Of a DNA stretch of 64,000 bases, positions 3,214-58,569 are shown in pieces. The notes beneath the pieces were generated by a model. That model worked only from the letters and a program-made list of their open reading frames with translations. It made no database searches and was not told the origin of the DNA. Source of the stretch: Escherichia coli (lineage in GTDB: Bacteria > Pseudomonadota > Gammaproteobacteria > Enterobacterales > Enterobacteriaceae); the NCBI RefSeq assembly GCF_045037415.1, contig NZ_CP173438.1; one strand, 5' to 3'. Each line of letters opens with the position of its first letter. The stretch's first letter is position 1. A program made the translations under genes and the position numbers.

Positions 3214-3655
3214 GGTAGGCGCAGCAAACGTCGCATCAGGCATTGATGTCGGATGCGGCGTAAACGCCTTATCCGACCTACAAAAATCACGCCAAATCAG
3301 GCTATTGCGCTGTCTGACGTAGGCCTGATAAGACACGTCAGCATCGCATCAGACATTGATGCCGGATGCGGCGTAAACGCCTTATCCGACCTACAAAAAT
3401 CACGCCAAATCAGGCTATTGCGCTGTCTGGCGTAGGCCTGATAAGACGCGGCAAGCGTCGCATCAGGCGTTGATGTCGGATGCGGCGTAAACGCCTTATC
3501 CGACCTACAAAAATCACGCCAAATCAGGCTATTGCGCTGTCTGGCGTAGGCCTGATAAGACGCGTTAAGCGTCGCATCAGGCGTTGATGTCGGATGCGGC
3601 GTAAACGCCTTATCCGACCTACAAAAATCACGCTACATCAGGCTATTACTCAGTC
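3214..3655. repeat. Tandem array of four ~114-bp REP/BIME-type palindromic units
   Basis: Unit beginning gtaggcctgataagacgcg..cgcatcaggc..gatgtcggatgcggcgtaaacgccttatccgacctac recurs at 3319, 3432 and 3546 with few substitutions, after a partial first copy. Confidence 0.85.
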
Positions 3656-30721: not shown

Positions 30722-30901
30722 TTATCTGCGGATTTGTCACATAAAAAGAGCATGATCACATTTGGAATACCTGTGCGATAAACCACACATTGCCACGGTT
30801 ATTCTGCTTACACATTCACACAATGGCACTCTTTTGGTTCTCGCAAACATTGTTCAGGGAATATACTGATGATAAATATAAATGCATTCAATGGATGATG
30901 A

Positions 30902-32722
30902 ATGAAAATATCGTGGAATTATATATTTAAGAACAAATGGCGATTTCACATTACAAGCATTTCACTTTTTCTTATCATGCTCGCGGTTTCAATCGCTTTT
31001 TTGCACTTGCGTTTTAATACCTTGTCCGGTACCGATAAAATGCGGCTTGAAATGTATAAGTCCACATTATATTCCACCATCGAGCAATTTTATGTTTTAC
31101 CCTATATGCTCTCAACAGACCATATCATCCGTCAGGCGGTAATTACGCCTGACGATATGACGTCCAGCGAACTCAATCAACGAATTGCACATTTCAATAC
31201 TCAACTCAAAACCGCAGCAATATTTATTCTGGATACCCAAGGTAAGGCCATCGCTTCTAGTAACTGGCAGGACCCCGGCAGCTATGTAGGGCAAAATTAT
31301 AGCTATCGCCCCTATTATAAACACGCCATGTCTGGCTTAAATGGACGCTTTTACGGTATTGGTAGCACTACGAATACACCGGGATTCTTCCTCTCTACAA
31401 GTATAAAAGATAAAGGAAAAATTGTCGGTGTTGTAGTAGTAAAAATAAGTCTTAATGAAATTGAAAAAGCATGGGCCGAAGGTCCTGAAAATATTATCGT
31501 GAATGATGAACATGGGATTATATTTTTAAGTTCAAAATCGCCATGGCGAATGCGAACACTGCAACCGTTACCTGTTCAGGCAAAACAAAAACTACAATCT
31601 ACCCGCCAATATAGTCTCGACAATCTTTTACCGGCGGATTATTATCCCTGTTATACCGTGAGCAATTTTACTTTCCTGAAAGATAAAAAAGAACAACTCT
31701 GTTTATTCCCGCAATATTATACGCAACAAATAGCCATTCCAGAATTTAACTGGAAAATGACAATTATGGTCCCCTTAGATAACCTGTACTGGTCATGGGC
31801 TATTTCGTTAGTCATTACACTAATTATTTACCTGCTGTTTTTGTTATTTATTAAATACTGGAGAATGCGATCTCATGCACAACAATTATTAACACTGGCG
31901 AATGAAACATTAGAAAAACAGGTTAAAGAGCGTACATCTGCCCTGGAATTGATCAATCAAAAATTAATACAGGAGATAAAAGAGCGCAGTCAGGCTGAAC
32001 AAGTATTACAAATTACGCGTAGTGAACTGGCAGAGTCCAGCAAACTGGCGGCGCTTGGACAGATGGCAACCGAAATTGCCCATGAACAAAATCAACCGTT
32101 AGCCGCCATTCACGCACTTACTGATAACGCGCGTACTATGCTAAAAAAAGAGATGTATCCACAGGTTGAACAGAATCTGAAACACATTATTTCCGTGATT
32201 GAGCGGATGACGCAGCTCATTTCCGAACTTAAAGCATTTGCCTCGCGCCATCGCGTACCTAAAGGTTCTGCCGATGTCATCAAAGTGATGTATAGCGCCG
32301 TGGCGTTACTTAATCACAGCATGGAGAAAAATAACATTGAGCGACGAATAAAAGCCCCATCCATGCCGTTATTTGTCAATTGCGATGAACTCGGTCTTGA
32401 ACAGATATTCAGTAATTTAATTAGCAACGCCTTAGATTCTATGGAAGGTAGCTCTTACAAACGACTGGATATCGCCATTCGCCAGGCAAATAACAAAGTT
32501 ATTATTACCATTAAAGACAGCGGTGGCGGTTTTGCACCTGAAGTTGTCGATCGCATATTTGAACCATTTTTTACCACTAAACGTAGAGGAATGGGGTTGG
32601 GACTGGCAATAGTCAGCGAAATTGTCCGAAATTCGAACGGCGCACTCCACGCCAGTAATCATCCTGAAGGCGGCGCAGTAATGACATTAACCTGGCCTGA
32701 ATGGGGAGAAAAACATGAATAA
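30902..32722 (+). CDS. kguS: Sensor histidine kinase, likely KguS of the alpha-ketoglutarate island
   Basis: 606-aa ORF with N-terminal TM, periplasmic domain, second TM, and HisKA/HATPase region (ATEIAHEQNQPLAAI H-box, DSGGGF, GMGLGLA). Confidence 0.7.
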   Translation: MKISWNYIFKNKWRFHITSISLFLIMLAVSIAFLHLRFNTLSGTDKMRLEMYKSTLYSTIEQFYVLPYMLSTDHIIRQAVITPDDMTSSELNQRIAHFNTQLKTAAIFILDTQGKAIASSNWQDPGSYVGQNYSYRPYYKHAMSGLNGRFYGIGSTTNTPGFFLSTSIKDKGKIVGVVVVKISLNEIEKAWAEGPENIIVNDEHGIIFLSSKSPWRMRTLQPLPVQAKQKLQSTRQYSLDNLLPADYYPCYTVSNFTFLKDKKEQLCLFPQYYTQQIAIPEFNWKMTIMVPLDNLYWSWAISLVITLIIYLLFLLFIKYWRMRSHAQQLLTLANETLEKQVKERTSALELINQKLIQEIKERSQAEQVLQITRSELAESSKLAALGQMATEIAHEQNQPLAAIHALTDNARTMLKKEMYPQVEQNLKHIISVIERMTQLISELKAFASRHRVPKGSADVIKVMYSAVALLNHSMEKNNIERRIKAPSMPLFVNCDELGLEQIFSNLISNALDSMEGSSYKRLDIAIRQANNKVIITIKDSGGGFAPEVVDRIFEPFFTTKRRGMGLGLAIVSEIVRNSNGALHASNHPEGGAVMTLTWPEWGEKHE

Positions 32723-34073
32723 TAAATTCAGTGAAATTACTATAGTTTATATTGAGGATAGTGACGATGTACGTTTTGCCTGTGAACAAACGCTCACGCT
32801 GGCTGGTTATCGCGTTATTTCCTGTTGCGATGCAGAACACAGTATTCCCCTTATTCAAAGTCAGGCCAACATTATTATACTGACCGATGTCAGGTTACCT
32901 GGAATATCAGGACTAGAGCTCCTCAGTTACATCAACGAAATGGATAGCAAAATTCCGGTTATTTTAATTACCGGACACGGTGACGTGGAAATGGCGGTGG
33001 ATGCCATGCGTAATGGTGCATTCGATTTCATTGAGAAACCAAGTAGCTCAGATAAATTATTGAGTATTATTGCCAGAGCGGTAGAAAAACGGCGATTGGT
33101 TTTAGAAAATCAGCAATTACTGGCGAATCTGCAACAGGAAAATGGCCCGGTGCTGATTGGTCGTAGTCCGCAGATGCAGCAACTGCGTAAAATGATCCTT
33201 AATGTCGCAGATACCGGTGCCGATGTCCTTATTTATGGTGAAACAGGTTGTGGTAAAGAAGTCGTCGCCAGAATGCTGCATCACTGGAGTACCCGCCGTC
33301 AGGGGCAGTTTGTTGCCTTAAACTGTGCAGGCTTACCAGAAACGTTGTTTGAAAGCGAAATATTTGGTCATGAGGCGGGCGCATTTACCGGTGCGGTTAA
33401 AAAGCGTATTGGAAAAATTGAACATGCAAATGGTGGTACGTTATTTCTCGATGAAATAGAGGGAATGCCATCAGGAATGCAGGTAAAACTGCTACGTGTA
33501 TTGCAGGAAAGAACCATTGAACGATTAGGTGCCAATCAATTAATTCCGGTGAATTGCCGTGTTATTGCAGCGACCAAGGAAGATTTACTGCGTCGCAGCG
33601 AAGAACATCTGTTTCGTCTCGATCTCTATTATCGTCTGAATGTGGTTAGCCTGAATATTCCACCTCTACGCCAGCGACGAGAAGATATCCCTGAACTGTT
33701 TTACTGGTTCGCCAGTCAGGCGGCACAAAAATATAATCGTCCTCTGCCTGATATTTCTCCCATGTTACTGGCCTGGTTGCAGTCACAAAGTTGGCCTGGC
33801 AATGTACGTGAACTTAAACACAATGCAGAGCGTTTTGTTCTCGGTTTACTGACCCACCACCAGCCAGTGCCAATGACTCAGCAAGAAGAGAGTGGTCTTA
33901 CCGCCTGCATTGATGCTTTCGAGAAAAAGTTAATCGAAGATATGCTGCGACAAACGGAAGGCCAGGTCAGTTTGACAGCGCGGCTATTACAGCTGCCGCG
34001 CAAGACTTTATATGACAAACTCAACAAACATCAGATTCAACCGCAAGTTTATCGACCAGAATCATCCAGCTAA
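32715..34073 (+). CDS. kguR: Sigma-54-dependent response regulator (NtrC family), likely KguR
   Basis: Receiver domain, AAA+ sigma-54 activation domain (GETGCGKE Walker A, GAFTGA motif in EAGAFTGAVKK), C-terminal HTH; 8-bp overlap with kinase gene. Confidence 0.8.
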   Translation: MNNKFSEITIVYIEDSDDVRFACEQTLTLAGYRVISCCDAEHSIPLIQSQANIIILTDVRLPGISGLELLSYINEMDSKIPVILITGHGDVEMAVDAMRNGAFDFIEKPSSSDKLLSIIARAVEKRRLVLENQQLLANLQQENGPVLIGRSPQMQQLRKMILNVADTGADVLIYGETGCGKEVVARMLHHWSTRRQGQFVALNCAGLPETLFESEIFGHEAGAFTGAVKKRIGKIEHANGGTLFLDEIEGMPSGMQVKLLRVLQERTIERLGANQLIPVNCRVIAATKEDLLRRSEEHLFRLDLYYRLNVVSLNIPPLRQRREDIPELFYWFASQAAQKYNRPLPDISPMLLAWLQSQSWPGNVRELKHNAERFVLGLLTHHQPVPMTQQEESGLTACIDAFEKKLIEDMLRQTEGQVSLTARLLQLPRKTLYDKLNKHQIQPQVYRPESSS

Positions 34074-35135
34074 TGCTGATTCCTGAGGATGTAACCCCAA
34101 ATCGATACCTTTGCGGGCGTAATGTTCAACTACCCAGGACCAGAATGATACCGGGATCGTAATCATCTTCGCATTGCGTTCCCGGTTGGCAGCTTCTGGC
34201 ATACCGGGGTAAATCACCGGATTGCCGCCAGGTTGAGGCTGCGTAGCTAACAGATAATCCGCAAAGAACTGCCCTTTCTCCCCTGCCAGATCGGTGAATT
34301 GATCAGGATCGATAATCAACGCAAAAAGATGATTATGCGCAGATCCATCCGTCTGATGATCTTCGGCGATCGTGTCACCACCAGATAAGATCCCCGCCAT
34401 CATTTCAATCATCAGTGCCAGGCCAAATCCTTTATGCTCACCAAATGGCAGTAACGCCCCTGGAGGATTGCTGAATAACACCCCAGGATCATTGCTTGGA
34501 TTCCCCTGTGCATCAATCAATTGTCCCGGCGCGGCCTGCTTCCCGGTGGACGACATTACCCGTGCTTTATTTAGCGCCATGCTACTGGTGGCAAAATCAA
34601 CCAGAATCGGCGGACGCCCATCACTGAACGGCCAGGCAAAGCAGAAAGGGTTAGTGGTCATACGCGGTTCCGCACCGCCCCACGGGGCGACCAGTGCAGG
34701 ACGCCCGGTGACGTTACTCATGGCCAGCATCGCCAGGCCTTGATCAGCAACCATTTGCCCGTAATGCCCCATACGCCCTAAATGATGCGCATGGCACAAC
34801 GTTAACAGGCAAAAACCGCGGTGTTTTGTTTGTTCGATGGCAGCATTTACCGCCACTTTTCCGGCGTGTTGACCAAAGCCATTGTGGGCATGAAAACGCT
34901 GTAAATTACCTTCACTTGTTAAGCATTCCGGGCGGGCATTCGCGGTTACATCGCCACGAGCGATATTTTCCAGATATTTCGGTAGCAGCGTGACGCCGTG
35001 GCTGGCAAAGCCATAACGTTCCGCTTCAATCATATGTTCCGCCACATCCTGAGCGATATCGGCATCACAGCCATTAAGTTCCAGCAGCCCGGCAGCTAAC
35101 CAACGCACTTTTTCAACAGCAATTTGTAATGACAT
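34062..35135 (-). CDS. Ldh_2-family (malate/L-lactate/sulfolactate dehydrogenase-like) oxidoreductase
   Basis: Start set at MSLQIAVEKV (357 aa) with SD GAGGAAAC upstream; sequence pattern of the Ldh_2 family; last gene of the transporter unit. Confidence 0.65.
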   Translation of the reverse strand: MSLQIAVEKVRWLAAGLLELNGCDADIAQDVAEHMIEAERYGFASHGVTLLPKYLENIARGDVTANARPECLTSEGNLQRFHAHNGFGQHAGKVAVNAAIEQTKHRGFCLLTLCHAHHLGRMGHYGQMVADQGLAMLAMSNVTGRPALVAPWGGAEPRMTTNPFCFAWPFSDGRPPILVDFATSSMALNKARVMSSTGKQAAPGQLIDAQGNPSNDPGVLFSNPPGALLPFGEHKGFGLALMIEMMAGILSGGDTIAEDHQTDGSAHNHLFALIIDPDQFTDLAGEKGQFFADYLLATQPQPGGNPVIYPGMPEAANRERNAKMITIPVSFWSWVVEHYARKGIDLGLHPQESALAG

Positions 35136-35146
35136 CGTTGGTTTCC

Positions 35147-36646
35147 TCACATTAGACCTAAAATTTTCCACCAGGTGGCGGCAAACAGTAGCAACAACAG
35201 GTAGCCGATTACCGTCAGGTACAGTCCCACACGGGTAAACTGGCGTGGCGTGAAGGTATCCGTACCCATACACACCATATTTTGTGGCGCGTTAATCGGC
35301 AGGATGAAGCCAAAACTGACACTGAAGGCGAGCAGAATGGTCATGCCGACCGGGTTAACGCCGAGTTCTGGCGGCAGACTGCTTAACAGGCTAATCAGGA
35401 TGGGCAGCAATGCGGCAGTTAGCGCAGTGGCACTGGCAAACCCCAGGTGAATGATTATCAAGAAAGCGGCGAGAATCGCGAAGATGGCAAGTGATGGTAA
35501 ACCGTCAAGACCAAAACCTTTCACCACATAGTTCGCCATCCATGAAGCTGCCTGTGTATCAAGCAACGTGGACCCCAGGCTGATACCAATACCAAACATC
35601 AGCAACGTGCCCCACTGCACACGTTTTTCGACCTCTTTCCAGCTCATTACACCGATGCCTGGCAGCAACATAATCGCCAGTCCGGCAAGGGTGACAGAGG
35701 TGGTATCAATACTGTGTAATTTTCCGCCAGTAGACCAAAAGAGCAGTAACAACAGCGAAATACCGATCAAGCGTTTTTCTTTACCGGTGGTTGGCCCTAA
35801 CTCTGCGAGTGCTTTTTTAATGGCCTCGCTCCCCCCTTCAACAGCTTCCGTTTCTGGCGGCAACAATTTACGTGCGAGGAAATAGAGGATCACCGACATG
35901 GTGAGGCTCCAGGGCGCGCCCGCTAACAGCCAGTCAAGCCAGCTGACAGAATGCCCGGCGCCGAAAGTTTTATTGATAAAACCGATAGAAAGCAGGTTTT
36001 GCGCCGACGAAGTTTGAATACCAACGTTCCAGATACTGGTCGCCTGGGCGATAACAATCATCATTGACGCCGCTAAACGTGAATGTTTATCCACCTTAAA
36101 TGCCGCAATGACCCCCATCATAATCGGCACCACGCAAGCCGTACGGGCAGTGGCACTGGGTACGACCAGGCTCAGGACGATGGTCACCACAATGGCACCG
36201 ATAATAATGCTGCGGCTACTGGCACCTATTTTCGACATAGTAAACAGCGCAATACGTTTATCCAGCCCGGTAATGGTCATTGCCGCCGCGATAAACATTG
36301 CTGCTGCCACCAGCGCCAGAGCAGAATTAGAAAAACCCGACAGAGTCATTTTCAGCGCTTTCGCGGTGCCAAGGATCGTGTCCGGGTGATTCATATCCGG
36401 GGCAAAACCAACCATAAAGATAATCAGTGCGGAAATAACAATTGCACTGGCGGTGTAATCCATCGCTTCGCTGATCCAGACAATAATGGCAAACACCAGA
36501 ATGGCGATCATATTTTGTCCGGCGACGGGCAAGGTATCGCCCAGAGGCAGAAGAGTAATAATAATTCCGGCAATGATCGCCAACCACAGGCCGGGATTAG
36601 GGATAATTCGACGCTTTTGTGGTGCGCCATGTGATATTGATGACAT
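35147..36646 (-). CDS. Anion permease (DASS/SLC13-like), candidate 2-oxoglutarate/dicarboxylate importer
   Basis: ~499-aa polytopic protein with internal duplicated hydrophobic halves; start at ATG 36646 with SD GAGGTG. Confidence 0.65.
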   Translation of the reverse strand: MSSISHGAPQKRRIIPNPGLWLAIIAGIIITLLPLGDTLPVAGQNMIAILVFAIIVWISEAMDYTASAIVISALIIFMVGFAPDMNHPDTILGTAKALKMTLSGFSNSALALVAAAMFIAAAMTITGLDKRIALFTMSKIGASSRSIIIGAIVVTIVLSLVVPSATARTACVVPIMMGVIAAFKVDKHSRLAASMMIVIAQATSIWNVGIQTSSAQNLLSIGFINKTFGAGHSVSWLDWLLAGAPWSLTMSVILYFLARKLLPPETEAVEGGSEAIKKALAELGPTTGKEKRLIGISLLLLLFWSTGGKLHSIDTTSVTLAGLAIMLLPGIGVMSWKEVEKRVQWGTLLMFGIGISLGSTLLDTQAASWMANYVVKGFGLDGLPSLAIFAILAAFLIIIHLGFASATALTAALLPILISLLSSLPPELGVNPVGMTILLAFSVSFGFILPINAPQNMVCMGTDTFTPRQFTRVGLYLTVIGYLLLLLFAATWWKILGLM

Positions 36647-36686
36647 ATTCACCTCATTGTGAAAAATAAAAAACCTGCCTGGCTAT

Positions 36687-36702
36687 TGCAGGAGCTATGC
36701 CA
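36687..36702 (-). promoter_or_regulatory. Candidate sigma-54 (-24/-12) promoter for the transporter/Ldh_2 unit
   Basis: Minus strand reads TGGCAT-AGCTC-CTGCA (GG-N10-GC spacing) ~40 bp upstream of the permease start. Confidence 0.45.
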
Positions 36703-36815
36703 TCTTTAATTTTTTAATAATGCTTTGTTATTTAATGATTTTATTATTTATTCTTTTTATTTTGTGCGCGGTTTTCCGCACAGTAAATAAAAGGTGATTC
36801 TCTTACCACACAGAT

Positions 36816-36839
36816 AAAAAAAGGGAGCGATATGCTCCC
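36816..36839 (-). terminator. Rho-independent terminator downstream of the sucD-like gene
   Basis: Minus strand: hairpin gggagc-atatc-gctccc followed by an 8-T run. Confidence 0.6.
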
Positions 36840-36857
36840 TTGATATTCATTTATGGA

Positions 36858-37730
36858 TTACTTAATAACATTCCATAACGTTTCGCCAAGCAACGCCGGG
36901 TTTCTTGTCCATGCCATGCCTGCTTTATCGAACGCACGGAATTTATCCTCTGCACTGCCGCTACCGCCAGAAATAATGGCTCCGGCGTGTCCCATGCGTT
37001 TTCCTTTTGGTGCAGTAACACCGGCAATATAACCTACGACCGGTTTATTCATATCATGGCGAATAAATTCCGCGGCCCGTTCTTCCGCATTACCACCAAT
37101 TTCACCGATCATAATTACCGCGTCTGTTTGCGGATCATTTTCGAATAAACGCAGCGCATCAATAAAGTTAGTCCCCGGAACCGGATCGCCGCCAATACCA
37201 ATACAGGTGGATTGCCCAAGTCCCAGCGCCGTGGTTTGCGCTACAGCTTCGTAGGTTAATGTACCGGAGCGGGAAACAATCCCAATACGCCCTGGGCGGT
37301 GGATTTCACCAGGCATAATCCCGATTTTGCACTCACCCGGCGTGATAACTCCTGGGCAGTTTGGCCCAATCAGCCGCACATCCGGGTGGCAGTCAAGCAG
37401 CCGACGAACTTTCACCATATCCAGTGTCGGTACACCTTCAGTGATCACCACAACCAATTTGACGCCAGCTTCAATAGCCTCAACAACAGAATCCAGCACA
37501 AACGGTGCAGGCACATAAATCACGCTGGCATCGGCCTCAGTTTGTCGCATCGCATCTTTCATTGAATCAAAAACCGGGCGATCCAGATGCCGTTGCCCGC
37601 CCTTACCAGGCGTCACTCCACCCACAATCTGCGTGCCATACGCAATAGCCTGCTCTGTATGAAATGTGCCGTTTTTGCCGGTAATGCCCTGCACCAGTAC
37701 CCGCGTGTGTTTGTTGATCAAAACGCTCAT
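36858..37730 (-). CDS. Succinyl-CoA synthetase alpha subunit paralogue
   Basis: 290-aa [36 protein letters not shown] with CoA-binding and phosphohistidine-loop pattern of SucD. Confidence 0.88.
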
Positions 37731-37742
37731 CTTAACCTCCTG

Positions 37743-38912
37743 TTAATTCAGTAACGCAATGATGCGTTTCGCGGCATCATCCAGAGAATCGACGGCTTCC
37801 ACCGTCAGACCACTTTCTGCCAGTAACCGCTGCCCTTCGGCGGCGTTATTACCGGAGAGACGCACCACGACAGGCAGGGTGATGCTGGCCTCATTCAGAG
37901 CATGAATAATGGCTCTGGCGATCATGTCGCAACGGACAATCCCACCAAAAATATTAACCAGAATGGCTTTCACTTTGCTGTCGGAAACAATCAGCCGAAA
38001 GGCTTCACTGACGCGCTCCTGGGTTGCGCCACCGCCAACATCCAGGAAGTTTGCGGGTTGTTCACCGTATAGCTTGATGATGTCCATGGTTGCCATAGCC
38101 AGCCCTGCACCATTGACCATGCAGCCGATATTTCCGTCCAGCGAGACATAATTAAGATCAAGCTTCGCTGCCTGGCTTTCGCGTGGATCTTCCTGGGTTT
38201 CATCACGTAGCACCTGGAGTTCCGGGTGACGATACAGCGCGTTATCATCCAGCGATACTTTCGCGTCTGCACACATAAATTCGCCCGTTTCCCGCAACAC
38301 CAGAGGGTTAATTTCCAGCAGGGCAAAATCCAGTTCGTTAAAGGCTTTCCACGCCTGATTAACCAGGCGACTAAAGGCAGCAAATAGTCCGTGTTCCAGT
38401 TGCAGAACAGCAAACATTTCGCGGATATGGCAAGGCTGCACGCCTGTCAGTGGATCAATGCTGACACTGCTGATTTTCTCCGGTGTCTCATGGGCGACTT
38501 TTTCAATTTCCACACCACCTTCCGGGCTGACAATAAACGTGACCCGCTGGCTTTCACGATCCACCACCATGCCAAAATAGAGTTCCTGGCGTACCGGATA
38601 AATGTTTTCGCACAGTAAAATACTGCTGACATACTGTCCTTCTGGCCCGGTCTGATAAGTCACCAGTTGCGATCCCAACATTTGCTGTACAAAAGCCTGT
38701 GCTTCCGGCAGCTGCTTAAGCACTTTTACGCCGCCAGCTTTACCGCGCCCACCAGCATGTACCTGCGCTTTAAGTACCGCGCCTTTACTCGGGCAAGCAA
38801 TATGTTGCCAGGCATCTGCCAGTTGCGAAATCTGTTGGATAGCTATCTCTTTTGGACACGGCATCCCCATGCCAGCCAGTAACGATTTGGCCTGATACTC
38901 ATGTAAATTCAT
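37743..38912 (-). CDS. Succinyl-CoA synthetase beta subunit paralogue
   Basis: 389-aa ORF MNLHEYQAKSLLAGMGMP, ATP-grasp SucC-like. Confidence 0.88.
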   Translation of the reverse strand: MNLHEYQAKSLLAGMGMPCPKEIAIQQISQLADAWQHIACPSKGAVLKAQVHAGGRGKAGGVKVLKQLPEAQAFVQQMLGSQLVTYQTGPEGQYVSSILLCENIYPVRQELYFGMVVDRESQRVTFIVSPEGGVEIEKVAHETPEKISSVSIDPLTGVQPCHIREMFAVLQLEHGLFAAFSRLVNQAWKAFNELDFALLEINPLVLRETGEFMCADAKVSLDDNALYRHPELQVLRDETQEDPRESQAAKLDLNYVSLDGNIGCMVNGAGLAMATMDIIKLYGEQPANFLDVGGGATQERVSEAFRLIVSDSKVKAILVNIFGGIVRCDMIARAIIHALNEASITLPVVVRLSGNNAAEGQRLLAESGLTVEAVDSLDDAAKRIIALLN

Positions 38913-40363: not shown

Positions 40364-41518
40364 TTAAAGATCCAGCAACAGTTGTTCCGGTGATTCCAGT
40401 AGCTCACGTATTGCCACCAATGTATGCACGGCTTCCTGACCATCGATAATGCGATGGTCATAGCTGAGAGCAAGGTACATCATGGGACGAATAACAACCT
40501 GACCGTTTTCTGCGACCGGGCGCGGCGTGATGGCATGCATCCCAAGAATGGCCGACTGCGGCGGGTTAATGATTGGCGTTGACATCATCGAACCAAAAGT
40601 ACCGCCGTTGGTGATAGAGAACGTGCCGCCCTGTAACGCCTCCAGCGGCAATTTGCCATTGCGTGCCTGTGTGGCGTATTCGGCAATTTGCCGTTCAATT
40701 TCCACCAAAGAGAGTGATTGCGCATTGCGTAACACAGGCACTACCAGGCCGCGGTTGCTGCTCACTGCAATGCCGATATCGCAATAATCACGCCAGATAA
40801 TCTCGTTGCCATCGACGCTGGCATTCACTACAGGGAAGCGCTCCAGCGCCCGGGTAACGGCCTTAACAAAGAAGGACATAAAGCCCAGCTTCACGCCGTG
40901 CTTCTCGGCAAAACGATCTTTCCAGCGGGCGCGTAAGTCCATCACGCTCTGCATGTTTACTTCGTTGAATGTGGTAAGAATGGCGTTATTTTGTTGGGAA
41001 GCCAGCAGACGCTCAGCAATTCGCTGACGTAAGCGCGACATCGGCTCACGACGTTCCTGACGAGCACCCGGTGTCAAGGGTTTAGCTGGCGCGATCTCCG
41101 CCACCCGTTCAGGCTGAATGGCTGGTGCAGGAGTAACGCGCTGCACATCCTCTTTCAGGATACGTCCATTTCTCCCGCTCCCCGCAACGTCAGCAAGTTC
41201 GACACCACTACGCTGTGCCTCCAGCCGTGCGGAAGGCATCGCCAGGGTTTCGGTGACTGGTGTGACGGTTTCTTCTATGACAGCTTGCGGCTTAAGATGC
41301 GCCAACAGTTGCGCGGACGTGACCGTGCTACCTTCGCTGACGATAATATTGCTTAACACGCCATCGTGCGGGGCCGGTATTTCCAGAATGACTTTATCGG
41401 TTTCCAGCTCGGCAATCACATCATCGCGTTTTACGTGCTCGCCTTCTTGTTTACACCAGGTTGTCAGCGTGCCTTCCGTGACAGATTCCGGTAATACAGG
41501 GACAGTAATTTCGATCAT
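40364..41518 (-). CDS. Dihydrolipoamide succinyltransferase (E2) paralogue
   Basis: 384-aa ORF with N-terminal lipoyl domain (ETDKV lipoyl-lysine motif) and C-terminal catalytic motif DHRIIDG. Confidence 0.88.
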
Positions 41519-41550: not shown

Positions 41551-44295
41551 TCATGGCTGAATATCTGCAAACGCAGCAGCAAGAAATTCGTCGATTTGTT
41601 GTTTATGTACACGCCCATACCCTGTCGCTGGTGCTGCCGCTGCCGGGCGGCCTGCATACTGCCAGTAAGGAGTGTTAATTTTCAGTGCCGCCAGCTCATG
41701 ACGAATCTGCCGCCACGCGCCCTGGTTTTCTGGCTCTTCCTGCAACCAAATCCATTCGCAGCAGTTCGGCCAACTCGCCAGAACATCATTCAGTTCTGCG
41801 ACCGGGAACGGGTAGAGTTGCTCCAGGCGAACAATCGCTACCTCGTCTTCATGCTCACGCTGCTTACGGGCTTCCAGTACGTCGTAATAGACCTGGCCGC
41901 TACACAAAATAACGCGCTTAACTTTCTGGGACTGATGCAATTGCGGATCGGTGATTACCGGTTTATAAGCGTCATCAGTGAATTCACAAAGCTCGCTCAT
42001 CGCGCCTTTAAACCGAAGTAAACGCTTACTCATCATTATCACTAACGGTTTGCGCATTGGGCGTAATGCCTGACCGCGCAACAAATGGAACATTTGTGCT
42101 GACTCACTGGGCATCACCACCTGCATGTTGTTTTCTGCGCACAGTTGCAGCCAGCGCTCAGGACGTGCGGAAGAGTGCTCCGGCCCTTGTCCGTCATAGC
42201 CATGCGGCAGAAGAATGGTTAAACCGCTATAGCGATCCCACTTGGTTTCGCCAGACGAGATAAATTGGTCAATAGCAACCTGAGCGCCGTTGGCAAAGTC
42301 ACCAAACTGTGCTTCCCAAATAACCAGTTGCTGAGGCGCAGACGTTGAATAGCCATATTCAAAGGCTAAGAGCGCTTCTTCATTAAGCACCGAATCATAA
42401 ACATCGAAAGATGCCTGACCAGCGCGGATATGCTGTAACGGCAGATAACGACGGGCTTCCGTTTGATGATGTACCACTGCATGGCGATGACTGAACGTGC
42501 CACGCCCTGAGTCTTCACCAGAAAGACGCACACCAACACCCGCATCCACAAGCGATGCATAGGCCAGCATTTCAGCCATTCCCCAGTCTACTGGCTGAGT
42601 ACCTGCGGCCATATCCTGGCGTAACGCCAGTTGCCGTTTAATGGTAGGATGTGCGACCACATCGGGTGGCAGTGTAGAAATGATTTCACCATACGCTGCC
42701 AGCTTTTGCCGAGGCAATGCCGTAGATACCGGGGCGCTCCAGTGAGGGTTGGTCAACCCATACCAGTTAGCGCTAAAAGAGTGAATTGCAGGTTTGAGAG
42801 GCTGCGGTTCACGTTTCTGGCAGCTATCCAGCCAGTCGCGATAGCGTGCCGTCATCTCATCTTGTTGCGCCTGAGTTAACAGGCCGCGGCGGGCAAGAGA
42901 TTCACCATAACGGGCGAGCGTACCAGGGTGAGCATCCACTGCCTGATACATTTGTGGCTGGGTAAGACGTGGCTCATCGCTTTCGTTGTGTCCGTGCTTA
43001 CGGAAGCAGCAAATATCGATGATGATGTCACGCCGGAAGGTGTCTCGCCATTCGCACGCCAGTTCCATTACCTGGCAAACAGCGTCAACGTCATCGCCAT
43101 TAACGTGGATAATTGGGGCCGCTACCATTTTGGCAATATCGGTGCAGTACCGTGAAGAACGCATATCCTGCAAGCGGGAAGTGGTGAAGCCAATCTGATT
43201 GTTAATCACCAGATGTAGCGTACCGCCAGTGCCGTAGCCCTGAGTCTGCGATAAGTTAAACGTGGTTTGGTTGACGCCGAGGCCGCCCAACGCGGAATCC
43301 CCATGAATAAGTACGCCCACCACTTTTGCCTGACCATCCTCACCACGGCGTTCCTGCCTGGCTCGCACCTGGCCCAGCACCACCGGATTCACGATCTCCA
43401 GATGTGAGGGGTTATACGCCAGCGCCACATGCAGCGAACCGGCAGGTGTTTCCAGATTGCTGGAATACCCCATGTGGTATTTCACATCGCCTGAACCACT
43501 GCCGATCGTCTGCTTGCCTTCAAACTCAGCAAAAAGCTGTGCCGGGTCTTTATTCAACAGATTAACCAGAACATTAAGTCTTCCCCGGTGCGCCATGCCA
43601 ATGACCATTTCCTCCACACCTTGCGCACGCAGGCGTTTTGTCAGCGTATCGAGCGCCGGGATTGCACTTTCGCCCCCTTCCAGAGAAAACCGTTTCTGCC
43701 CAACATAACGGGTATGCAGATAACGCTCTAACGTCTCTGCCGCCATCAGTTTTTCAAAACGAGCAATACAGGTTTGGGCATCAGCTTGTGGCGCATTGCT
43801 GCTCTCAATCCGTGATAACAACCAGTTGATTTCTTCACGATTTTCCAGATGAGCAAGTTCATAAGCCTGGCTACTGGCCCAGGCTTGCTCCAGCAGGTTA
43901 AGCAGTTGCTTAAGTGGCATTTGCGTGGTGTGTGCGCCAAAGGTGACGCTAAACTCCTGCAACAAGTCTTCTTCGCTTAATCCCCAAAAACCAGGCTGGA
44001 GGGAGGGAACGTCAGCCGGGGGATTCAAACCAAGTGGATCAAGCTTTGCGCGCAGATGCCCCTGCGTGCGCCAGGCATTGATCAGTTGTATTACCGCAGC
44101 CTGTTTTTTTAAGGTCGCACCGCTGATATTGTTATCACCGGATACGCTTTGGACAGTCAGTTCAGGTGAAAGAAAAAAACGCCGCCAGTCTTCCGGGAGT
44201 TGTTCCGGCGTACGCAACCAGGTCTGGTAGTACTCTTCAAGCCAGGTCGCGTTATCTCCACTAAGCAGCGTGCCGGGCGAGGTCATGTTCTCCAT
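41551..44295 (-). CDS. 2-Oxoglutarate dehydrogenase E1 component paralogue
   Basis: Long ORF with E1o/TPP-binding similarity; start placed at ATG 44295 (MENMTSPG, SD AGGAG 6 nt upstream) rather than the ORF-track start 44418. Confidence 0.85.
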   Translation of the reverse strand: MENMTSPGTLLSGDNATWLEEYYQTWLRTPEQLPEDWRRFFLSPELTVQSVSGDNNISGATLKKQAAVIQLINAWRTQGHLRAKLDPLGLNPPADVPSLQPGFWGLSEEDLLQEFSVTFGAHTTQMPLKQLLNLLEQAWASSQAYELAHLENREEINWLLSRIESSNAPQADAQTCIARFEKLMAAETLERYLHTRYVGQKRFSLEGGESAIPALDTLTKRLRAQGVEEMVIGMAHRGRLNVLVNLLNKDPAQLFAEFEGKQTIGSGSGDVKYHMGYSSNLETPAGSLHVALAYNPSHLEIVNPVVLGQVRARQERRGEDGQAKVVGVLIHGDSALGGLGVNQTTFNLSQTQGYGTGGTLHLVINNQIGFTTSRLQDMRSSRYCTDIAKMVAAPIIHVNGDDVDAVCQVMELACEWRDTFRRDIIIDICCFRKHGHNESDEPRLTQPQMYQAVDAHPGTLARYGESLARRGLLTQAQQDEMTARYRDWLDSCQKREPQPLKPAIHSFSANWYGLTNPHWSAPVSTALPRQKLAAYGEIISTLPPDVVAHPTIKRQLALRQDMAAGTQPVDWGMAEMLAYASLVDAGVGVRLSGEDSGRGTFSHRHAVVHHQTEARRYLPLQHIRAGQASFDVYDSVLNEEALLAFEYGYSTSAPQQLVIWEAQFGDFANGAQVAIDQFISSGETKWDRYSGLTILLPHGYDGQGPEHSSARPERWLQLCAENNMQVVMPSESAQMFHLLRGQALRPMRKPLVIMMSKRLLRFKGAMSELCEFTDDAYKPVITDPQLHQSQKVKRVILCSGQVYYDVLEARKQREHEDEVAIVRLEQLYPFPVAELNDVLASWPNCCEWIWLQEEPENQGAWRQIRHELAALKINTPYWQYAGRPAAAAPATGYGRVHKQQIDEFLAAAFADIQP

Positions 44296-44330: not shown

Positions 44331-44346
44331 TGCACAATCCGTACCA
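44331..44346 (-). promoter_or_regulatory. Candidate sigma-54 (-24/-12) promoter for the 2-oxoglutarate dehydrogenase / succinyl-CoA synthetase operon
   Basis: Minus strand reads TGGTAC-GGATT-GTGCA with GG-N10-GC spacing, ~36 bp upstream of the proposed E1 start. Confidence 0.45.
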
Positions 44347-44476: not shown

Positions 44477-45670
44477 TCACATCACCGCAGCAAACGCCTT
44501 TGCCACGCGATGCACATTTTGCGTGTTAAGCCCGGCGACACACATGCGACCGCTGGCGATGAGATAGACACCAAATTCTTCACGTAGTTGGTCAACCTGA
44601 GCGGCACTTAAACCGGTATAACTGAACATGCCGCGCTGATTAAGCAGATAATCGAAATTGCGTTCTGGCATCTCTGTGCTCAATACCTTCACCAGTTCCT
44701 GACGCATTGCCAGAATGCGAGTTCGCATCTCTTCTACTTCCACCAGCCAGCTGGCTTTCAATGCCTCGTCATTCAGCACCGCAGCCACCACCTGCGCACC
44801 AAAATTCGGCGGGCTGGAGTAGTTGCGGCGAACAGTTGCTTTCAATTGCCCCAGTACGCGGCCTGCGGCTTCGGCATCTTCACACAGAACAGAAAGTCCG
44901 CCGACGCGCTCGCCGTAAAGGGAGAAAATTTTCGAGAACGAATTGCTCACCAGAGCGGGTAATCCAGCGCTGGCAATGGCGCGAATGGCGTAGGCATCCT
45001 CTTCCATACCGGCACCAAATCCTTGATAGGCAATATCAAGAAATGGGATAAGCTCACGGGCTTTGAGAATTTCAATCACCGCATCCCACTGCTCATTAGT
45101 GAGATCGGCACCCGTTGGGTTGTGGCAACATGGATGCAGCAACACAATACTGCGGGCAGGTAATGTTTTCAGCGTCGCCAACAGGTCATTAAAGCGCACG
45201 CCGTTAGTCGCTTCGTCATACCAGGGGTAAGTACTTACTTCGAATCCAGCCCCGGCGAATATTGCTACGTGGTTTTCCCAGGTAGGATCGCTGACCCAGA
45301 CGCTTGATTCCGGGAAGTAGCGTTTCAGGAAATCTGCGCCCACTTTCAATGCCCCTGAGCCGCCAAGGGTTTGAATGGTTGCTACGCGCTGTTGTTGCAG
45401 TACCGGATGGTCCGCACCAAACAGCAGCGGCGCAATGGCATGGCGATAGCTGTTAAGCCCTTCCATCGGTAAATAAAGCGAAGCACCATGAGGCTGCGCA
45501 TTCAGGCGCGCTTCCGCATCCGCCACGGCTTTCAGTTGTGGAATAATTCCGTCTTCGTTGTAGTACAGACCGATACTTAAATTCACTTTGTCGCTGCGAG
45601 GGTCTTCTTTAAAACGCTCCATAAGCGTAAGAATCGGGTCGCCAGCGTAGGCGTCAACTTTTTGAAACAC
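44477..45670 (-). CDS. tyrB: Aromatic-amino-acid aminotransferase
   Basis: 397-aa protein from GTG at 45670 ([36 protein letters not shown]). Confidence 0.95.
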
Positions 45671-58471: not shown

Positions 58472-58487
58472 TACAAGAATCATGCCA
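58472..58487 (-). promoter_or_regulatory. Sigma-54 promoter of pspG
   Basis: Minus strand reads TGGCAT-GATTC-TTGTA, the same -24/-12 architecture as the pspA promoter, ~36 bp upstream of the pspG start. Confidence 0.55.
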
Positions 58488-58569
58488 AAAATAATCTATT
58501 GATTTAACAGCAAAACGCCCCGCGACGGTGCGCAGGGCGTGGTGAATTTGACTACTTTTTGGTGAAAAG

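Follow-up and report, generated by a model that had tools for sequence, protein, structure and literature searches.

The element read on the minus strand at 36702..36687 of the window (the whole stretch of Escherichia coli DNA analysed here, 64,000 nucleotides long) is almost certainly the -24/-12 element of Pc5038, the sigma-54 promoter of the c5038-c5039 operon. The Pc5038 promoter, the operon boundary and the KguSR control are already known, having been published in 2013 and 2017; a validated promoter and operon boundary were here recovered correctly from raw sequence. What the present analysis adds is a cross-genus footprint, which refines the likely KguR core, together with a suggested second KguR site and a suggested IHF site; these additions are small and mainly of interest to sigma-54 specialists. 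The promoter controls the uptake of alpha-ketoglutarate, which is abundant in kidney proximal tubule cells. Since wild-type bacteria outcompete a c5038 mutant in the bladder and kidney of mice, the element is important for fitness in uropathogenic E. coli.

The kgu island and its activator

The window locus is the KguS/KguR alpha-ketoglutarate island c5032-c5041, located between tyrB and aphA. Its genes follow the order E1-E2-Lpd-SucC-SucD, DASS-Ldh2 and KguR-KguS, and the arrangement in CFT073 is the same. Among 5426 complete E. coli genomes, 1045 carry the island, and the segment 34000-37800 of the window is 100% identical to several human isolates. The two genes of the operon and the two regulatory genes are:

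35147..36646, minus strand: c5038, opening gene of the operon, an alpha-ketoglutarate transporter and DASS-family symporter (TIGR00785, 242 bits, above cutoff; RefSeq)
34062..35135, minus strand: c5039, Ldh_2-family (malate/lactate/ureidoglycolate dehydrogenase-like) oxidoreductase (annotation and profile)
32715..34073, plus strand: kguR, NtrC-type sigma-54 enhancer-binding response regulator (Pfam; published genetics and EMSA)
30902..32722, plus strand: kguS, sensor histidine kinase partner of KguR (annotation/profile; published)

The c5039 gene begins 11 nt after the c5038 stop, and both genes are co-transcribed (PMC3694859). The c5038 product has a role in anaerobic growth on alpha-ketoglutarate. 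According to Pfam, KguR associates a Response_reg domain, a Sigma54_activat AAA+ domain (1.8e-67) and an HTH_8 domain (Fis-type HTH), with a GAFTGA loop at residue 222. NtrC-type AAA+ activators carrying a GAFTGA loop act on the sigma-54 holoenzyme. The best NCBIfam matches of KguR are NtrC and AtoC, both far below the equivalog cutoffs: KguR reaches 370 against 714 bits for the AtoC equivalog, and KguS 143 against 646 for AtoS, which is among its best matches. Judged from these profiles, KguR is an NtrC-family enhancer-binding protein, and is predicted to be no orthologue of a named one.

Sequence and register of the -24/-12 element

36687..36702, minus strand: sigma-54 -24/-12 element of c5038 (sequence, weight matrix, conservation, published RpoN site)
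36676, minus strand: c5038 transcription start (+1), an 'A' (published CFT073 5'-RACE, mapped to the window)
36647..36675, minus strand: rest of the 30-nt 5' leader, +2 to +30, including GAGG (sequence read)

Direct reading of the minus strand from 36702 to 36687 gives TGGCATAGCTCCTGCA, that is TGGCAT-AGCTC-CTGCA. The GG and GC doublets are 10 nt apart, matching the sigma-54 consensus TGGCAC-N5-TTGCW, from which the element departs twice (TGGCAT for TGGCAC and CTGCA for TTGCA). Both variant positions are present in genuine promoters, for example those of argT, ddpX and norV. The first-pass annotation had placed TGGCAT-N5-CTGCA on the minus strand about 40 bp before the permease ATG, and this is confirmed, the 3' end of the motif lying 41 nt before the c5038 ATG (36646..36644). 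The Shine-Dalgarno GAGG of c5038 occupies 36655..36652 on the same strand.

The intergenic region between the sucD stop codon (36860..36858) and this ATG had been described as AT-rich and 205 bp long. It is indeed AT-rich, with 31.8% GC vs 51.6% for the window; its length is 211 nt. As regards known RNA elements in these 211 nt, the Rfam matches with E <= 1 are far below the gathering scores and mostly cover the terminator hairpin described below; this candidate was rejected.

The published c5038 start, an 'A' at -30 from the ATG, maps to window position 36676, which is an A. With +1 set at this position, the GG doublet (36701/36700) falls at -25/-24 and the GC doublet (36689/36688) at -13/-12, a register computed here. 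Because the start determined by 5'-RACE is in exact register, the motif found from the sequence and the published RpoN site are one and the same.

Published characterisation in CFT073

The sucD-c5038 intergenic region of the window is identical to that of CFT073 at 222 of 223 bases. The sole difference, an A in the window vs a G in CFT073 at 36721, falls in the N4 of the IHF-like site and spares the promoter, the start site and the KguR repeat. This near-identity means that the experiments performed in CFT073 apply to the window. The two copies of Pc5038 share the element, its motif, the start, the KguR repeat, the gene order and the tyrB-aphA location, and differ by this A/G at 36721 only; the window comes from another island-bearing strain.

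Using 5'-RACE, Cai et al. (2017) found that c5038 transcripts begin at an 'A' located 30 nt upstream of the start codon, and remarked that a c5038 motif resembles the -24/-12 consensus (PMC5318444). Deletion of rpoN abolished the induction of c5038 by alpha-ketoglutarate, and plasmid-borne rpoN restored it (PMC5318444). In EMSA experiments, His6-RpoN shifted the c5038 promoter and the glnA positive control, and did not shift the xylA negative control (PMC5318444). The cloned c5038 promoter region alone was able to drive lacZ from a plasmid, at a level about 10-fold above kgtP (PMC5318444). The sigma-54 promoter that had been proposed for the permease/Ldh_2 unit is thus upheld by a published start, rpoN dependence and RpoN binding, and the rpoN-dependence foreseen for a permease reporter is borne out by the CFT073 deletion (PMC5318444).

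The involvement of KguSR was established earlier. Cai et al. (2013) reported that alpha-ketoglutarate induces both operons of the island under anaerobiosis, that the expression of both is lost upon kguSR deletion, and that the c5032 and c5038 promoter fragments are each shifted by purified KguR (PMC3694859). In the 2021 KguR transcriptome, deletion of kguR strongly lowered the expression of the island genes 'except c5038'; c5039, which lies downstream of c5038, was strongly down, and the authors give no explanation in the accessible text (PMC8716947). The accessible supplements and methods of this paper contain neither a mention of c5038 nor a reason for the wording 'except c5038' (PMC8716947).

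These data also bear on the possibility that c5038 is served by a sigma-70 promoter, with KguR as a conventional activator and an indirect rpoN effect, for example via kguSR expression. The AT-rich region could conceal weak -10-like hexamers, and an indirect effect through KguR levels is conceivable, the region upstream of kguSR having, at 30823..30839, a good -24 element and a degenerate -12. However, a simple consensus scan, of a kind that would miss weak promoters, found no sigma-70-like promoter on the minus strand of 36400..37100, and the mapped start fits the -24/-12 register exactly. RpoN binds the c5038 fragment directly (PMC5318444), the activator is of the NtrC-type AAA+ class with its GAFTGA motif, and strong purifying selection acts on the -24/-12 element. 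A sigma-70 promoter is thus considered highly improbable.

Statistical strength of the match

Two strict matches to TGGCAY-N5-YTGCW are present in the 64 kb vs 0.54 expected, and 10 of 100 shuffles also reach two. When up to three mismatches to the 16-mer sigma-54 consensus are allowed, 105 matches are found in the window vs 133 expected, with no enrichment. The bare pattern match, taken without other evidence, is only suggestive. Since consensus matching was uninformative, an empirical log-odds weight matrix was used in its place. It was derived from the 135 ChIP-seq-mapped E. coli K-12 sigma-54 sites of Tables 1 and 2 in Bonocora et al. 2015 (PMC4591121), and both strands of the window were scanned, amounting to about 128,000 positions. 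A second matrix was derived from 42 intergenic sites.

A weight-matrix scan had been put forward as a check by the first-pass annotation, and its outcome places the c5038 site (17-mer ATGGCATAGCTCCTGCA) at the median of the genuine sites, with a score of 14.3 bits, at or above 48% of the 135. With the 135-site matrix, it ranks 9th among the ~128,000 positions. Nine sites of the window score at least as high as the c5038 site, itself included, vs a mean of 0.8 in mononucleotide shuffles. Most of the eight others are intragenic; high-scoring intragenic positions include ones in uvrA (28583) and in the E2 gene (40780). Only three of the nine are both intergenic and oriented towards a start codon no more than about 100 nt away, namely those of c5038, c5032 and pspG, the gene annotation being that of a strain 100% identical over 34000-37800. 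The site TTGGCATGATTCTTGTA at 58472..58488 is the known pspG sigma-54 promoter (OS40 in the list of Bonocora et al.). It served as a positive control, and its high rank is partly circular since it also belongs to the training set of the matrix. The genuine site nearest to the c5038 element is that of argT, ATGGCATAAGACCTGCA (OS22).

Two further readings can be weighed at this point. According to the first, the motif would be a chance occurrence and c5038-c5039 would be transcribed solely by read-through from the c5032 promoter. The lack of significant enrichment of strict matches and the equally scoring intragenic positions go in this direction. They are to be set against a 5'-RACE start exactly 12 nt downstream of the GC doublet, a cloned fragment that drives lacZ by itself, the loss of expression upon rpoN deletion and the binding of RpoN (PMC5318444), as well as an intrinsic terminator between the units and an element that is invariant from E. 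coli to Vibrio, where no sucCD was found within 4 kb upstream. The probability left to such a coincidence is practically nil.

According to the second, sigma-54 would bind the c5038 site without productive firing, as at many intragenic sites of K-12. Bonocora et al. indeed state that which of their 135 mapped sites are functional promoters is not known to them (PMC4591121). The c5038 site is nevertheless intergenic, correctly oriented and close to its start codon, with a cognate activator and an enhancer site adjoining. Its start is mapped, and rpoN- and KguR-dependent reporter activity is reported in the accessible literature. Silent binding can hardly be credited for this site, and a functional Pc5038 is by far the better reading.

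Conservation across genera

A scan with the transporter protein, limited to one genome per species, yielded 16 loci. Nine other genomes, ranging from E. albertii to Vibrio, have the motif TGGCAY-N5-CTGCA at 56-60 nt upstream of the ATG: E. albertii itself, three Citrobacter and a Citrobacter MAG, Klebsiella indica, Entomohabitans teleogrylli, Pectobacterium zantedeschiae and Vibrio sp. Y2-5. Across the 10 sequences, which cover 6 genera and have a mean column identity of 63%, TGGCA and CTGCA do not vary. Six different 5-nt spacers separate them (AGCTC, AACAC, AGCAA, ACCCC, GACCC and AAGAC). GAGGT and the ATG are also invariant across genera, and the upstream KguR repeat is kept too. At the position of the start-site A (36676), E. 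albertii has a G. As a side observation, the upstream region in a MAG labelled Flavobacteriia is almost base-for-base that of Vibrio.

The gene context follows the motif. All the motif-bearing loci for which downstream sequence is available have Ldh2, kguR and kguS beside the transporter, and the distant homologues (59-65% identity), in Burkholderiales, Azotobacter and others, have neither kguRS nor the motif. In Vibrio, no dehydrogenase or succinyl-CoA synthetase gene match was found within 4 kb on the upstream side of the transporter. The gap between sucD and the transporter extends to 363-728 nt in K. indica, Entomohabitans and Pectobacterium, with an unchanged distance between promoter and ATG. 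The presence of the promoter without sucCD in Vibrio and this fixed distance to the ATG argue that the promoter belongs to the transporter unit.

Within E. coli, the divergent PA45B allele, which is 96% identical, has its substitutions in spacer segments and on the outer margin of the KguR repeat; no change is seen in the block that runs from the IHF-like site to the ATG and includes the -24/-12 element.

The terminator and the boundary between the two units

36814..36841, minus strand: intrinsic terminator of the c5032-c5037 (sucD) operon (hairpin and T7, folding, published RT-PCR)

The predicted good intrinsic terminator that closes sucD appears to be real. It begins 17 nt after the sucD stop, and its 8-bp stem (AAGGGAGC / GCUCCCUU) spans 36841..36821 on the minus strand, with arms at 36841..36834 and 36828..36821. 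The stem includes five G-C pairs and closes on a 5-nt loop, ATATC (AUAUC). The T-run, of 7 T at 36822..36816, overlaps the 3' arm of the stem. With an energy of -17.2 kcal/mol (z = -5.2), the fold is better than that of any of 200 shuffles. A hairpin with a T8 run had been annotated at 36816-36839; the hairpin and its reading as a terminator hold, with a run of T7 and a stem that reaches 36841.

Conservation of this terminator was seen in E. coli and Citrobacter only. In Citrobacter, a hairpin followed by T6 is kept after sucD, with changes in both arms of the stem. In K. indica, Entomohabitans and Pectobacterium, a simple screen found no hairpin with a T-run directly after sucD, and picked up KguR palindromes only.

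Operon prediction and RT-PCR spanning each of the gene junctions led to the 2013 conclusion that c5032-5037 and c5038-5039 are separate operons (PMC3694859). The earlier proposal that the permease/Ldh_2 unit is driven separately agrees with this junction RT-PCR and with the plasmid promoter-lacZ fusion (PMC3694859, PMC5318444). Read-through from the upstream operon with no independent start site, which would have told against the proposal, is not what the accessible reports describe, since they give an independent start and separate operons.

A milder form of read-through deserves more attention, in which the promoter is real and leakage through the sucD terminator also adds a meaningful share of the c5038-c5039 transcription under induction. 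The stem of the terminator is only 8 bp long, with its run of seven T. The operon RT-PCR was performed on cells grown on glycerol (PMC3694859), a condition that is possibly not fully inducing, so some read-through could occur under induction. Moreover, the c5032 and c5038 promoters share KguR as a regulator, which makes read-through hard to detect in reporter data. On the other hand, the authors conclude from the RT-PCR of the c5037-c5038 junction that the operons are separate (PMC3694859), the hairpin is strong for its length and is retained in Citrobacter despite altered stem bases, and the promoter alone gives high expression from a plasmid, well above that of kgtP (PMC5318444). A meaningful contribution of read-through is on the whole rather unlikely, and Pc5038 is retained as the promoter of c5038-c5039.

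The promoter of the first unit

44331..44346, minus strand: sigma-54-type element of c5032 (E1 ATG at 44295; weight matrix, KguR dependence published)

The sequence TGGTACGGATTGTGCA at 44346..44331 on the minus strand forms a sigma-54-type element, TGGTAC-GGATT-GTGCA, before the E1 gene, and it is identical in CFT073. With 15.9 bits it is ranked 2nd by the 135-site matrix, and only 13th by the matrix of 42 intergenic sites. The c5032 promoter is bound by KguR and depends on KguSR (PMC3694859). No report of rpoN dependence of c5032 was found in the accessible KguSR literature. The first-pass annotation had seen the island as two separately driven sigma-54 units. This is supported by published data for c5038; for c5032, the element is sigma-54-type by sequence and the expression is KguSR-dependent (PMC3694859).

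Upstream architecture and proposed mechanism

36763..36782, minus strand: proximal KguR enhancer site TGTGCG-N8-CGCACA (published EMSA; inverted repeat; cross-genus conservation)
36793..36812, minus strand: candidate distal KguR-type site TGTGTGG-N9-CACC, centred at about -126.5 (conservation only)
36718..36730, minus strand: IHF-like site TAACAAAGCATTA, with one mismatch to WATCAANNNNTTR, centred at about -48 (positional conservation)

The KguR repeat TGTGCGGAAAACCGCGCACA, at 36782..36763 on the minus strand, is an inverted repeat centred at -96.5, and lies 136 nt before the ATG in CFT073 and in the window alike. TGTGCG-N8-CGCACA was proposed as the KguR site of c5038 in 2013 (PMC3694859). 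Deleting the repeat abolishes KguR binding according to the 2021 paper, whose Table 3 places the site at CFT073 4815816-4815835 (PMC8716947). In the cross-genus alignment, the conserved core of the site fits TGTGYGG-N5-CRCGCA, and Citrobacter, K. indica and the PA45B allele lack the outer CA of the N8 register that was published.

A candidate second KguR site may be present about 30 bp upstream of the first, where it begins 3 nt after the T-run of the terminator. The alignment shows little or no variation in its TGTG.GG...CAC columns, and Entomohabitans and Pectobacterium have clear palindromes at this position. The published KguR EMSA probe begins at -163 from the ATG (PMC3694859), which corresponds to 36809 in the window and removes the first 3 nt of the distal site. 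This site is undescribed in the accessible text of the three c5038/KguR papers (PMC3694859, PMC5318444, PMC8716947).

A candidate IHF site may likewise lie between enhancer and promoter, the IHF-like sequence being located in the AT-rich spacer that separates them. The best IHF-like match begins 28-29 nt upstream of TGGCA in 9/9 loci and is perfect in Entomohabitans, and the CAA-N4-TTA columns are conserved in the cross-genus alignment. Matches with one or two mismatches are common in such AT-rich DNA, and two other one-mismatch matches occur in the same 75 nt. IHF is unmentioned in the accessible text of the 2017 promoter paper (PMC5318444).

Taken together with the published data, these features suggest the following sequence of events. 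The sigma-54 RNA polymerase would bind the -24/-12 element as a closed complex. KguS would sense alpha-ketoglutarate and phosphorylate KguR, and anaerobiosis would raise the expression of kguSR. KguR would then bind the inverted repeat at -96.5, and probably also the second site around -126.5. Looping of the AT-rich spacer, with a probable IHF-induced bend at about -48, would bring KguR onto the closed complex, a geometry that we infer for Pc5038. Hydrolysis of ATP by the AAA+ domain of KguR, acting through its GAFTGA loop, would open the promoter, and the transcript would begin at the A at 36676, with a 30-nt leader. The terminator just upstream would insulate c5038-c5039 from c5032-c5037, itself endowed with a KguR-dependent promoter of the sigma-54 type.

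A wider reading of the alignment can be considered, for which the balance appears about even. The enhancer architecture would be fuller than described so far, with the second KguR site, an IHF bend site at a fixed distance from the -24 element, and a KguR core TGTGYGG-N5-CRCGCA in an N6 register, the published N8 register being E. coli-specific. The transporter, Ldh2 and KguRS would form, with their promoter, an old self-contained cassette distributed from Vibrio to Enterobacterales, which the operon for 2-oxoglutarate dehydrogenase and succinyl-CoA synthetase would have joined later.

Comparison with known sigma-54 systems

The archetypal sigma-54 promoter with tandem upstream enhancer sites is glnAp2. 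Pc5038 shares with it the -24/-12 element and the activation from about -100 or beyond by a phosphorylated regulator of the NtrC family (NtrC in the case of glnAp2) with the same domains, and probably also the presence of two enhancer sites, about three helical turns apart. The signals are different, nitrogen limitation for glnAp2 and alpha-ketoglutarate plus anaerobiosis for c5038, and the recognition sequence TGTGYGG...CRCGCA of c5038 is unlike that of glnAp2. In addition, glnAp2 has no need of IHF, whereas the AT-rich spacer of c5038 contains a conserved IHF-like site. Of note, glnAp2 corresponds to OS37 in the list of Bonocora et al. (PMC4591121).

In terms of layout, parallels are provided by the sigma-54 promoters glnHp2, argT and Klebsiella nifH, which are IHF-assisted. 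As in these, the c5038 region would comprise an enhancer, an AT-rich spacer with an IHF-like site near -48, placed there by positional conservation only, and the promoter. The core of argT is nearly the same as that of c5038 (TGGCATA...CCTGCA).

With respect to function, DctB/DctD-dctA and AtoS/AtoC-atoDAEB are sigma-54 two-component systems for carboxylate transport or catabolism. The common arrangement places the genes for a sensor kinase and an NtrC-type regulator next to a substrate-induced sigma-54 operon for carboxylate transport or catabolism. KguR and KguS, far below the AtoC and AtoS equivalog cutoffs, look like relatives of the Ato proteins rather than orthologues. The difference from the Dct system is in the transporter, which belongs to the DASS family in the case of c5038 and to the DctA/DAACS family in that of dctA.

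Architecture of the c5038 Promoter Region

RNA-seq of the kguR deletion has been described as showing all island target genes strongly down "except c5038", an exception for which the authors offer no reason (PMC8716947). The same data show c5039, the next gene of the c5038 operon, as strongly down, and no mention of c5038 was found in the supplements of that paper as far as these were accessible. Three features, two of them putative binding sites, can be noted in the DNA upstream of the gene, in addition to the published KguR repeat (36782..36763, minus strand).

36793-36812, minus strand: candidate second KguR-like element, TGTGTGG-N9-CACC, proposed from conservation
36718-36730, minus strand: IHF-like site TAACAAAGCATTA, proposed from its conserved position
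36674-36692, minus strand: DNA palindrome CCTGC-N9-GCAGG

The candidate second element is placed 30 bp farther upstream than the published KguR repeat; it begins 3 nt past the T-run of the terminator of the upstream sucD operon. The published EMSA probe for the c5038 promoter (PMC3694859) cuts 3 nt off this putative element. No description of it was found in the portions of PMC3694859, PMC5318444 and PMC8716947 that were consulted.

Across the nine loci tested, the IHF-like site keeps an apparently fixed distance of 28-29 nt from TGGCA, on its upstream side, and the Entomohabitans locus carries a perfect WATCAANNNNTTR. The sole difference between the window and CFT073 in the sucD-c5038 intergenic region, at 36721, falls within the N4 of this predicted site.

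The -12 element of c5038 and the mapped transcription start both fall within the palindrome, which is then followed by TTTTTTATTTTT; it is partially retained in Citrobacter and K. indica. Since its 5' arm lies upstream of the mapped start, an RNA form would be possible only on read-through transcripts.

A further sigma-54-like element can be discerned upstream of the sensor gene kguS.

30772-30789, plus strand: published autoregulatory KguR site TGTGCGATAAACCACACA, upstream of kguS
35 nt beyond this site (region 30772-30839), plus strand: sigma-54-like ATGGCACTCTTTTGGTT, from the matrix scan

This match has a good -24 element, although its -12 element has TGGT in place of TGC, and the two weight matrices (built from 135 ChIP-seq-mapped K-12 sites and from 42 intergenic sites) give it 3.1 and 6.6 bits. 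RpoN is mentioned nowhere in PMC8716947, and the way in which a sigma-54 enhancer-binding protein activates kguSR is not discussed there.

Proposed Assembly and Borders of the Island

The transporter-Ldh2-KguR-KguS set is also present in the Vibrio loci (L008, L009), where no match to 2-oxoglutarate dehydrogenase or succinyl-CoA synthetase was found in the 4 kb upstream of the transporter. Because of this, and because the distance between sucD and the transporter gene ranges from 211 to 728 nt in the Enterobacterales, the gene arrangement suggests that the island was put together from two modules. One of the two Vibrio-type loci comes from a contig labelled "MAG: Flavobacteriia bacterium HF-Dia32", whose transporter upstream region is almost base-for-base that of Vibrio sp. 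Y2-5, with the same kguRS genes as neighbours; it is probably a mis-binned Vibrio contig.

A further observation concerns the core gene tyrB.

44520-44544, minus strand: published KguR site of the c5032 operon, within the tyrB 3' end

This site falls in the last ~80 bp of tyrB. When island-bearing strains are compared with K-12, ~9 substitutions are clustered in ~30 bp of this 3' end, the rest of the gene being ~99% identical. The cluster leads to two amino-acid replacements (A to Q and Q to H) and generates the right half-site CACGCA of the KguR site, which reads CGCGCA in CFT073. K-12 lacks this half-site. From these changes, island regulatory DNA, or the island junction, seems to extend into tyrB.

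Other Sigma-54-Like Matches

58472-58488, minus strand: known sigma-54 promoter TTGGCATGATTCTTGTA upstream of pspG (OS40 of Bonocora et al., PMC4591121)
28583-28599, plus strand: near-consensus sigma-54 motif CTGGCACGTAAGCTGCA, inside uvrA, sense
40780-40796, minus strand: sigma-54-like motif CTGGCGTGATTATTGCG, inside the island E2 gene, sense
3220-3647: REP/BIME-type tandem array, flanked by gltP and yjcO, which are convergent

The pspG promoter ranks first or third in the weight-matrix scan, to be read with the caveat that it belonged to the training set. The uvrA-internal motif of the window scores 15.2 and 16.9 bits with the two matrices; uvrA is not named in the main text or the accessible supplements of the K-12 sigma-54 ChIP-seq paper (PMC4591121). 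The highest sigma-54-like score of the window, 16.2 bits with the 135-site matrix, is that of the motif in the E2 gene. The REP/BIME-type array has a period of 114 bp, with 3.8 copies and 93% matches, and three of its copies contain the sigma-54-like 17-mer TTGGCGTGATTTTTGTA, scoring 15.0 and 16.2 bits with the two matrices.
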